The notes below the pieces were generated by a model, which saw nothing but the letters and a program-made list of their open reading frames with translations, was not told the DNA's origin and did not search any database. A stretch of DNA of 64,000 nt from Chitinophagales bacterium. Its GTDB lineage: Bacteria; Bacteroidota; Bacteroidia; Chitinophagales; JADIYW01. Where the stretch lies: positions 43,596 to 107,595 of the forward strand of contig JACJXS010000015.1 in the NCBI GenBank assembly GCA_020636545.1. Direction: 5' to 3'. Positions 39,058-40,266 of the stretch are shown here, one piece after another; within the stretch, counting starts at the first letter, position 1, and each line of letters starts with the position of its first letter. A program made the position numbers and the translations under genes.

Positions 39058-40266
39058 TTATTGTAATTTATCATTATTCCAATTTTGAGGATTGTTTTTT
39101 ATATAATCCGAGATAGCTTTATGTGATTTTTCATTTCGAATGATATGTTCGTAAAAATTACGTTGCCATATTTTATAATTTAATGTTTTAATTTTTTCCG
39201 TTGAGGCGGTTGGGGCGAATTCCGTTGAGGCGGTTGGGGCGAATTCCGTTGGGGCGAATTCCGTTGGGGCGAATTGCAATTCGCCCGTACTATCGGAAAA
39301 AATTGATTTGCTCTTATTATCGGAAATAATCTCTTTGCTCTTATTATTAGAAATTATAGAATCTTCTGAATTATTGGGGATTATTGGTGCGGTTGAGGCG
39401 AATTCCGTTGGGGCGGTTGGGGCGAATTCCGTTTGGGCGAATTCCATTGGGGCAAATTGCAATTCGCCCGTACTACTATTAAGATTCTTTTCTTCCGAAT
39501 TATTAGAAATTAGAGCTTCGCTCATATTATCCTTTTCCTTTAAAATTAAATCTTTTATTCTTTTTATTGTAGCGATTTTAAATCCTCTTATTATGGAGCC
39601 GATAGTTTGAGATGGGGATTTGAATTTTGGGGCGGTTGGGGGGAATTCCGTTGGGGCGGTTGGGGCGAATTGCAATTCGCCCGTACTATCGAAAAAAATT
39701 GATTCGCTCTTATTATCAGAAATAATCTCTTCGCCCGTATTATCGGAAATAATCTCTTCGCCCGTATTATCGGAAATAATCTCTTCGCCCGTATTATCGG
39801 AAATAATTGATTCGCTCTTATTCTCGGAAATAATTGATTCGCTCTTATTATCAGAAATAATCTCTTTGCCCGTATTTTCGGAAATAATTGATTCGCTCTT
39901 ATTATCAGAAATAATCTCTTCGCCCGTACTACTATTAAGATTCTCTTCTTTCGAATTATTAGAAATTAAAGCTTCGTCCATATTATTTTCTTTTTTAAAA
40001 ATAATTTCGATGATTCCATGGATATGATTGGGCATGATGATGTATTCGTGGATGCGGCAATTATCTCGAATGTTTTCGGTGTTTGCCCATTCTTCGAATG
40101 CAATTTGTCCGTATTCATTTAATATCATTTCACCGTTTTCTATTGCTCCAAATAAATTTGCTCTATCTTGGCAACATATTGTAATAAAATACAATCCTGC
40201 CTGTGCATAATCATATCCTTTTAATCGGATAGAACGACGATGGTGTTTTTGGGGATTGTATGGCAT
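39058..40266 (-). CDS. REP-associated tyrosine transposase (RayT)-like / IS200-type Y1 HUH protein with two large repeat insertions
   Basis: N-terminus MPYNPQKHHRRSIRLKGYDYAQAGLYFITICC..; HUH motif MPNHIHGII; central helix TIGSIIRGFKIATIKRI; catalytic Tyr context KIWQRNFYEHIIRN. The core pieces are separated by two low-complexity blocks of about 125 aa each. Confidence 0.8.
   Translation of the reverse strand: MPYNPQKHHRRSIRLKGYDYAQAGLYFITICCQDRANLFGAIENGEMILNEYGQIAFEEWANTENIRDNCRIHEYIIMPNHIHGIIEIIFKKENNMDEALISNNSKEENLNSSTGEEIISDNKSESIISENTGKEIISDNKSESIISENKSESIISDNTGEEIISDNTGEEIISDNTGEEIISDNKSESIFFDSTGELQFAPTAPTEFPPTAPKFKSPSQTIGSIIRGFKIATIKRIKDLILKEKDNMSEALISNNSEEKNLNSSTGELQFAPMEFAQTEFAPTAPTEFASTAPIIPNNSEDSIISNNKSKEIISDNKSKSIFSDSTGELQFAPTEFAPTEFAPTASTEFAPTASTEKIKTLNYKIWQRNFYEHIIRNEKSHKAISDYIKNNPQNWNNDKLQ
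39198..39266. repeat. GC-rich 24-bp x2 plus 15-bp x2 tandem units (CCGTT[GAGGCGGTT]GGGGCGAATT) leading into palindrome 1
   Basis: Encodes the TEFAPTAS/TEFAP repeats. Similar arrays lie at about 39386-39449 and 39626-39662. Confidence 0.85.
39267..39286. repeat. 20-bp perfect palindrome GGGCGAATTGCAATTCGCCC followed by GTAC, copy 1 in the RayT-like ORF
   Basis: Read directly; encodes GELQFAP on the minus strand. Confidence 0.9.
39450..39469. repeat. Palindrome copy 2 (one mismatch: GGGCAAATTGCAATTCGCCC) followed by GTAC
   Basis: Read directly. Confidence 0.85.
39663..39682. repeat. 20-bp perfect palindrome copy 3 followed by GTAC
   Basis: Read directly. Confidence 0.9.
39697..39930. repeat. 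27-bp in-frame tandem array, 8 full units plus 1 partial, of two alternating subtypes
   Basis: Subtypes aatctcttcgcccgtattatcggaaat (GEEIISDNT) and aattgattcgctcttattatcagaaat (SESIISDNK). Three diverged units lie at 39301-39381. Confidence 0.9.

Follow-up and report, generated by a model that had tools for sequence, protein, structure and literature searches.

Subclass 2.4 of the TnpAY1 transposases was delineated by Quentin, Siguier, Chandler and Fichant (2018, BMC Genomics 19:475; PMC6006769) and is the same as group 4 of the RAYTs (REP-associated tyrosine transposases) of Bertels 2017. Its members have a median length of 194 aa, carry the motifs NH[IFV]H, WQ and YIxNNP, and are found in Cyanobacteria, Bacteroidetes and various other phyla, at a mean of 1.5 copies per genome and with repetitive extragenic palindromes (REPs) within +/- 1000 nt of the gene. 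These REPs are long hairpins whose foot has three G-C pairs, and they bear either a 5' GT[AG]G or the double foot GT[AG]G...C[TC]AC. The hallmark of the subclass, called 'unique' to it, is the presence of in-frame REPs inside the tnpAREP gene itself. The insertion between strand beta3 and helix alphaC (beta3:alphaC) varies in length and sequence, contains short DNA repeats and was modelled as a loop away from the active site (PMC6006769). REPs inside RAYT genes are not mentioned in Nunvar 2010, Di Nocera 2013, Bertels 2017 or Corneloup 2021. We report here on a tnpAREP/RayT-like gene of 402 aa found at 39058..40266 (minus strand) in 64,000 nt of a Chitinophagales contig (JACJXS010000015.1), a stretch that is referred to as a whole as the window. 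Two loops of the encoded protein are filled with copies of a REP palindrome and with repeats of its arms.

The window gene belongs by its sequence to subclass 2.4, since its open reading frame (ORF) has NHIH, WQ and YIKNNP. Besides these three motifs it shares with the subclass a Bacteroidetes-type host, a long REP with three G-C foot pairs, in-frame intragenic REPs and a variable beta3:alphaC insertion that has short DNA repeats and is modelled as a loop away from the active site. It differs in its length (402 aa, and 461 in a sister strain, against the median of 194) and in that both loops are heavily expanded, the one between alphaC and beta4 (alphaC:beta4) holding two REPs. Its REP feet are GTAC/CAAC instead of GT[AG]G/C[TC]AC, and there is no extragenic REP beside the gene, the sole nearby copy lying inside hsdS. 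Neither a polymorphism of the arrays at the level of strains nor a location among type I restriction-modification (R-M) genes is described in the main text of Quentin 2018. An earlier note on this DNA, made from the letters without database searches, gave no published status for the trait that it described, which is the hallmark of the subclass (PMC6006769). The proposal that intragenic hairpins are an unreported, family-wide trait was dropped, being explicitly described by Quentin et al. 2018. The main phenomenon, the gene of a REP enzyme colonised in frame by its REPs, is already published, and the window offers an example of it, not the concept.

With TnpAREP/RayT of E. coli (yafM, PDB 4ER8, a subclass 2.2 REPtron) the window ORF shares the HUH (histidine-hydrophobe-histidine) motif, one catalytic Tyr with an Asn metal ligand after it, the W, Q, E, H and R positions for reading the GTAG foot, and a presumed recognition of GC-rich hairpins in single-stranded DNA. 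Unlike the window gene, E. coli tnpAREP is flanked by REPs and bacterial interspersed mosaic elements (BIMEs) and has none inside (PMC6006769). The IS200/IS605 transposases (TnpA of IS608 and ISDra2) share the fold, the chemistry and the recognition of single-stranded hairpins. In the window, by contrast with these elements, the hairpins lie inside the ORF, none flanks the gene subterminally, and the gene is present as a single copy in 64 kb.

Small in-frame palindromic repeats, such as those of the window gene, are a feature of ordinary genes as well. Ogata and colleagues are said to have found, in 2000, Rickettsia palindromic elements inserted in frame in such genes. REPs within ordinary genes are described as in-frame small palindromes that add 20-80 residues, presumably in permissive loops (Di Nocera et al. 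2013, PMC3733652). The hsdS copy of the window, at 38202, is a plain example. The RayT gene differs in that the host gene encodes the enzyme believed to mobilise the repeat, and in that the arms have been amplified into long, strain-variable arrays.

Catalytic core and predicted fold

The gene is laid out as follows, with residue numbers of the 402-aa protein and model confidence as pLDDT (predicted local distance difference test).

39058..40266, minus strand: tnpAREP/RayT-like gene of TnpAY1 subclass 2.4 type, 402 aa, ATG start
39988..40266, minus strand: N-terminal core, residues 1-93, beta1 to beta3, ending just past the HUH strand; pLDDT 94-98 for residues 21-90
40018..40029, minus strand: HUH motif N80-H81-I82-H83, aligned to H59-M60-H61 of 4er8
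39628..39987, minus strand: loop insert 1, residues 94-213, beta3:alphaC, about 120 aa; pLDDT <50 for residues 110-217
39532..39627, minus strand: alphaC segment, residues 214-245 (KFKSPSQTIGSIIRGFKIATIKRIKDLILKEK), between both inserts; pLDDT 93-97
39199..39531, minus strand: loop insert 2, residues 246-356, alphaC:beta4, about 111 aa; pLDDT <50 for residues 266-348
39136..39168, minus strand: W motif, W367-R377 (WQRNFYEHIIR), by alignment to 4er8
39091..39105, minus strand: catalytic Tyr motif Y388-I-K-N-N392, the YIxNNP motif running into P393; Y388 codon at 39103-39105

Alignment of the ORF with E. coli TnpAREP (4er8) places W367, Q368, E373, H374 and R377 on W94, Q95, E100, H101 and R104, the residues by which the E. 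coli protein recognises the GTAG foot (PMC6006769). Y388 and N392 of the DYIKNNP motif fall on Y115 and N119, the catalytic tyrosine and the metal ligand. All catalytic and DNA-recognition residues are kept in the window ORF. The ORF is as the earlier note had described it, minus strand with an ATG start, and the peptides quoted there (MPYNPQKHHRRSIRLKGYDY, NHIHGII, TIGSIIRGFKIATIKRI and WQRNFYEHIIR) are all present. The designation of WQRNFYEH as the Tyr motif has to be corrected; this is the W motif for GTAG recognition, and the 4er8 alignment puts the catalytic tyrosine at Y388.

With the inserts spliced out, profile searches agree with the note in assigning the surrounding segments to the Y1_Tnp family. 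The spliced core of 181 aa scores 27.5 bits against Pfam PF01797 (Y1_Tnp; cut-off 23) and the full ORF 16.6. With NCBIfam NF047646 (REP_Tyr_transpos) the spliced core reaches 68.8 bits and the full ORF 60.5, both short of the equivalog cut-off of 80, which sets the window ORF apart from the classical RayT as a related protein but not an equivalog. NF033573 (transpos_IS200) gives 19.7, below its cut-off of 55. With the core as query, more than 7,999 relatives were retrieved; 120 proteins of 178-297 aa were among the matches listed. In alignments of the closest 20 and of these 120 proteins, the best matches listed, the N-terminal core has invariant columns and length variation is restricted to the same two loops; across the 120 the alphaC segment is nearly invariant.

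An AlphaFold2 model, built with the 120 homologues, has 134 core residues with pLDDT >90, while residues 110-217 and 266-348 fall below 50. The HUH motif lies on strand 81-88 (beta3), and Y388 and N392 on helix 379-391 (alphaD). The inserts map between beta3 and alphaC (from residue 222), then between alphaC and beta4 (strand 372-376); both blocks are predicted to be disordered, in two loops at the surface. Foldseek ranks 1-29 are all TnpA proteins of the IS200/IS605 type (ISDra2, IS608, IS200, Sulfolobus) or E. coli TnpAREP, with a probability of ~1.0; the E value of ~3e-3 is weakened by the disordered half of the model. Alignments and model together support the identification of the core as a putative Y1/HUH RayT-type enzyme.

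Intragenic REPs in the window, the family and sister strains

The repeats within the gene, and the one related copy outside it, are the following.

39919..40016, minus strand: head of insert 1, one copy of a 98-nt direct repeat
39463..39560, minus strand: head of insert 2, the other copy, 83% identical to 39919-40016
39675..39928, minus strand: tandem array of 27-bp units, 9.4 copies, coding for TGEEIISDN, KSESIIS(E/D)N or KSESIFFDS
39663..39682: REP palindrome copy 1, GGGCGAATTGCAATTCGCCC, coding-strand feet GTAC...CAAC, read as GELQFAP
39450..39469: REP palindrome copy 2, with 1 mismatch, GGGCAAATTGCAATTCGCCC
39384..39458, minus strand: second set of 24- and 15-bp right-arm units, in a 92-nt repeat 92% identical to 39201-39292; 24 bp x 2.3 at 39384-39439, 15 bp x 2.9 at 39416-39458
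39291-39347: tandem repeat of 27-bp units in insert 2, 2.1 copies
39267..39286: REP palindrome copy 3, at the position of a near-invariant 'STGELQFAPT' in close homologues
39196..39275, minus strand: 24- and 15-bp units (TEFAPTAS / TEFAP) made of the right arm and foot of the palindrome, GAATTCGCCCCAACG; 24 bp x 2.5 at 39196-39256, 15 bp x 2.9 at 39233-39275
38202..38254, minus strand: inverted REP inserted in frame in hsdS ('ERIATVGANCNSP'), together with arm repeats of 19 bp, 2.4 copies

Insert 1 begins with the head (NNMDEALISNNSKEENLNSS) and continues with nine 27-bp units, the REP palindrome and right-arm units. Insert 2 consists of the duplicated head, a REP, right-arm units of 15 and 24 bp, two 27-bp units, another REP and further right-arm units. 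The two inserts are thus paralogous by modules (head, 27-bp units, palindrome and 15/24-bp units) and are not collinear copies. The two paralogous insertions of 125 aa proposed earlier hold as two blocks with paralogous modules, but not in their size, which is ~120 and ~111 aa, nor as collinear copies. The similarity of the two heads noticed then is the 98-nt direct repeat, and Tandem Repeats Finder, with which the tandem repeats were called, recovers the 27-, 15- and 24-bp units.

Each 27-bp unit contains the left foot of the palindrome and the start of its arm, ACGGGCGAA or a degenerate AGAGCGAA. On the coding strand such left foot and arm units (ACGGGCGAA) precede each palindrome, and units of the right arm and foot (GAATTCGCCCCAACG) come after it. 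The string TTCGCCCGTAYTATCGG, reported earlier as common to the 27-bp unit and the palindrome flank, has 6 matches against 0 expected. Because the units repeat its arm and foot, the inserts are derived from the hairpin, as had been suggested. As DNA, copy 1 forms a hairpin with an 8-bp stem and a 4-nt loop (-8.3 kcal/mol). The perfect 20-nt palindrome GGGCGAATTGCAATTCGCCC has three matches in the ORF, one of them with 1 mismatch, and one in hsdS; shuffled sequences have 0. The three intragenic palindromes account for 3 of just five GC-rich hairpins across the 64 kb, which have a G+C content of 31.5%. The foot of the window REP has GGG/CCC pairs and the stem is of 8-10 bp; the tetranucleotides GTAC/CAAC are found also in flavobacterial relatives (L002, L003 and L048). 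There is no REP upstream of the RayT gene and no hairpin in its AT-rich flanks; outside the gene, the hsdS copy, 837 nt downstream of the RayT stop codon, is the sole one in the window. In HsdS this insertion separates the central helix from the second target-recognition domain, and a sister contig, L101, has it as well.

The distribution of hairpins in the family was examined in DNA loci from contigs representing one genome per species, namely the best 80 of at least 600 candidate stretches. They span Bacteroidota, Cyanobacteria, Chloroflexi, Proteobacteria, Planctomycetota and other phyla; the source genome of the window is not among them, and the best locus is 67% identical. Seventy intact genes, the window gene counted in, were scored. 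Between the HUH and W motifs, 54/70 contain one or more GC-rich perfect hairpins. This segment holds 77 hairpins in all, against 1.27 +/- 1.11 in dinucleotide shuffles, and their density of 4.2 per kb is 22 times that of the flanks (0.19 per kb). A GTAG or CTAC foot accompanies 59 of the 77. Hairpins take the form GTAG-GGGC...GCCC, GGGC...GCCC-CTAC or the double foot, with lineage-specific inner stems, and where a gene has two of them the orientation is usually inverted.

The 77 hairpins use all three codon phases equally (23/26/28), and one palindrome is translated as GELQFAP, GRIAIRP or ANCNSP depending on the homologue. Judged from these sequences, the constraint on the intragenic hairpins is on the DNA and not on the peptide, because the phases are equal and the palindrome is read as differing peptides. 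Palindrome-coded peptides occur in 99 of 114 close homologues among the best matches listed, in the second loop of 96 and the first loop of 24. In the closest proteins among these matches, 'STGELQFAPT', the palindrome in one frame, is nearly invariant directly before the W motif.

Some further occurrences of REPs were seen. The RayT homologues L011 (368-386, 'GEITVGANCIRPN') and L029 (369-387, 'GEIVGADGIRPE') have a REP at a third site, the N-terminal beta-hairpin, and L029 has in addition an in-frame REP of its resident type within the neighbouring hsdR (1252-1273), beside the nuclease motif region. The exact 20-nt palindrome was found on 14 contigs of the IMG/VR viral collection (L081-L094). 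These mostly carry clusters of related hairpins with no long ORF or RayT motifs, i.e. BIME-like noncoding arrays.

Close alleles of the window gene were collected as two partial proteins (P0080 and P0088) and the members of their 90% clusters, from Chitinophagales metagenome-assembled genomes. The allele contigs share the gene order of the window. For contigs L095-L098, identity is 99.7-100% across 1,644 nt of flank and 100% in the initial 330 nt of the gene. With one letter for each type of 27-bp unit, the series in insert 1 is ABABBAAAC for the window, ABABBAC for L095, ABABBAABCCB for L097, ABCDABCCCB for L096 and ABCDABCCC for L098. The L097 allele (P0126) is open over 461 aa and has one whole additional module in insert 2. 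The core is 100% identical in at least five strain alleles with differing arrays. Nearly identical strains vary in loop length by whole in-frame units, the comparison of repeat copy number that the earlier note had asked for. The polymorphism between strains is real, since each of the two main array series is found in at least three independent assemblies, while the exact short-read counts are not secure. The arrays change much faster than point substitutions build up in the surrounding sequence.

Truncation was observed at or just after the hairpin in L042, L052, L060 and L077; L054 is frameshifted in the loop, and protein P0104 has no alphaC between two REPs. It seems that intragenic hairpins act as breakpoints.

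Origin of the expanded loops

The reading that we favour, with a probability of about 75%, is that the gene encodes an intact subclass 2.4 RayT in whose two surface loops copies of what would be its own REP have been inserted and amplified. The hairpins would be the DNA substrate of the enzyme, its cognate REP. They would have landed in permissive loops of its own gene, as is common in subclass 2.4, and action in cis probably helped. The arrays may then grow and shrink by hairpin-promoted replication slippage or through RayT cleavage and rejoining at the hairpin feet, selection retaining just those variants in which the reading frame and core are intact. To judge from its conserved residues, the window protein probably still binds and cuts single-stranded REP DNA.

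Several points weigh against this reading. The repeat counts come from short-read metagenome assemblies and 3 of 4 related contigs end inside the gene, which makes exact copy numbers uncertain. The units of 27, 15 and 24 bp are multiples of 3, so that slippage keeps the frame automatically, and open frames among the alleles argue only weakly for selection that is still at work. Besides the coding frame, the antisense -1 frame also runs through both inserts without stops. The foot tetranucleotides GTAC/CAAC are not the canonical GT[AG]G/C[TC]AC. We infer the function of the enzyme from conserved residues alone, and the route by which the REP entered and the mechanism of its expansion are likewise inferred steps.

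The earlier note had left the choice between an enzyme that tolerates expanding loops and a decaying gene with a frame that happens to be open. The first is favoured, because the core residues are kept, the core is identical across alleles, the 461-aa allele is open and the architecture is the rule of the family. The second supposes that REP invasion and expansion have already inactivated the enzyme, the frame being open through the chance of multiple-of-three units. It could draw on an ORF about twice the subclass median, on the full-length score of 16.6 below the Pfam threshold of 23, on the open antisense frame and on the relatives that decay at REPs (the six just named). However, the HUH-, W- and Y-motif residues are all intact, and the alleles keep a core without a single difference while their arrays diverge, the longest remaining open. 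Moreover, of the three sense frames only the one continuous with the core passes through both inserts without a stop (the others contain 1/4 and 20/13), and the inserts occupy precisely those two loops in which differences in length are tolerated by the family. We regard decay as very unlikely. Much the same holds for the possibility that the repeats were mis-joined or over-expanded in short-read assembly and that the real gene is nearer 200-250 aa, for which the odds appear equally poor. The ~250 bp of 27-bp units and the dispersed repeats of 98 and 92 nt do exceed typical read lengths, and contigs break in the hsdS repeats as well as, in 3 of 4 related cases, within the gene. Yet the window and L097, which are independent full-length assemblies, agree on the two-insert architecture, and the partial contigs concur on the head, the unit types and the REP. 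Each main array series recurs in three or more independent assemblies, and other family members of 286-297 aa have the same layout.

A different kind of explanation would make the intragenic hairpins selected cis-elements instead of passengers, serving in autoregulation through binding of RayT to its own gene or mRNA, in mRNA stability or attenuation within the hsd operon, or as masters from which REPs are seeded. The presence of hairpins in ~77% of the sampled genes, in many phyla, in the same two loops and in any reading frame would fit such a role, as would the near-invariance of 'STGELQFAPT' within an otherwise hypervariable disordered loop (120 homologues, best matches listed). The window gene also lies within an operon, upstream of hsdS and hsdR, and many homologues are directly upstream of hsdR. 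On the other hand, 16 of the 70 genes have no strong hairpin, and position and copy number (0 to >6) vary freely, as expected under repeated insertion and loss; REPs are found in unrelated genes too (PMC3733652). Selection of the hairpins as cis-elements therefore seems unlikely to us, if not negligibly so, and with it the corollary that the variable loops would be a by-product or a tuning device. An intact RayT with loops built from its own REP remains our preferred account.

The type I restriction-modification operon

The RayT ORF is part of a type I R-M operon, all of whose genes are on the minus strand; hsdS and hsdR lie downstream of it.

40366..41910, minus strand: hsdM, in the same type I R-M operon as the RayT ORF
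37620..38882, minus strand: hsdS
37245..37616, minus strand: 23S_rRNA_IVP four-helix-bundle gene, within the operon
34062..37208, minus strand: hsdR

PADLOC has no model that matches the RayT protein or the 23S_rRNA_IVP protein. Rfam gave nothing between 37000 and 42500 except a chance miRNA match (E = 0.5), and an exact protein look-up of the 402-aa sequence returned no record.

Such a location recurs in the family. When the best 80 loci were searched by tblastn with the window Hsd proteins, type I R-M genes were found in at least 13 of them (16%), all co-oriented with the RayT gene and usually in the order hsdS/hsdM - RayT - hsdR (L001, L011, L016, L017, L018, L029, L033, L048, L051, L063, L064, L075 and L078; the window comes in addition). 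About 1% would be expected for a random 20-kb stretch, given an estimate of about one type I system per genome. A Pfam census of the nearest downstream neighbours counted ResIII in 8/61 and HSDR_N, T1R_D3-like and SWI2_SNF2 in 6/61; among upstream neighbours Methylase_S appeared in 5/71 and N6_Mtase in 2/71. Almost all other listed neighbour families were seen once, none in more than 2 loci. More than one R-M lineage is involved, the HsdR proteins being between 24% and 77% identical to that of the window. Restriction systems are mentioned neither in the main text of Quentin 2018 nor in Bertels 2017, and a literature search retrieved no paper on an association of RayT with R-M systems.

One could propose that subclass 2.4 RayTs and their REPs are recurrent, co-transcribed residents of type I R-M operons, in which the REP-laden gene and its enzyme act as a self-modifying module. 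The gene could set the ratio of HsdR to HsdM/S expression through its hairpins, and the enzyme could remodel hsd genes through REP insertion. The latter idea stems from the in-frame REPs in the hsdS of the window and the hsdR of L029, and from hsdS alleles that differ beside an identical hsdR. We consider the proposal as a whole improbable.

Other observations concern the operon itself. Contig L099 encodes a 100% identical HsdR protein, and the second target-recognition domain of its hsdS (1-499) differs from that of the window, which suggests HsdS domain swapping between strains. At 38310-38360 a perfect tandem repeat of 12 bp, in 4.2 copies, codes for (TELT)4 in the conserved central part of HsdS. 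In EcoR124, how long the spacer of the recognition site is depends on the number of copies of a similar 12-bp repeat (TAEL). By analogy, the TELT repeat may serve to switch specificity.

The two intergenic regions that flank the RayT gene (38883-39057 and 40267-40400) resemble each other at ~71%, with long gaps in AT-rich sequence. The likeness extends to the final codons of hsdM (IETV*, matched by a remnant similar to IENI*) and to 41 nt ahead of each start codon; it could reflect a cassette-like insertion. A target duplication was rejected, 71% with long gaps in AT-rich DNA being too weak. Both sides of the 23S_rRNA_IVP gene have AT-rich inverted repeats of 34 nt (37165-37198 and 37606-37639, 85% complementary) that are made of the heptamer AATTGAG. 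The same repeat recurs ahead of hsdM and at the 5' end of both hsdS and hsdR (38791-38859, 41928-41954), and it is translated, for example as MENGELKMEN. Its sequence suggests that this operon contains a second small element, either a cassette or a repeat system.

For the family, the window gene and its 461-aa allele are the most expanded seen (402 and 461 aa against the median of 194), with both permissive loops loaded. Near-identical strains that differ in their arrays offer a natural series for the rate at which REP-derived coding repeats turn over, and for the part of the enzyme in it. Should subclass 2.4 RayTs indeed be residents of type I R-M operons and have a role there, their hypervariable loops coded by REPs would belong to an accessory R-M module that modifies itself, and would not be mere baggage. 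The association, if it holds in a proper census, would bear on why 'domesticated' RayTs are kept.

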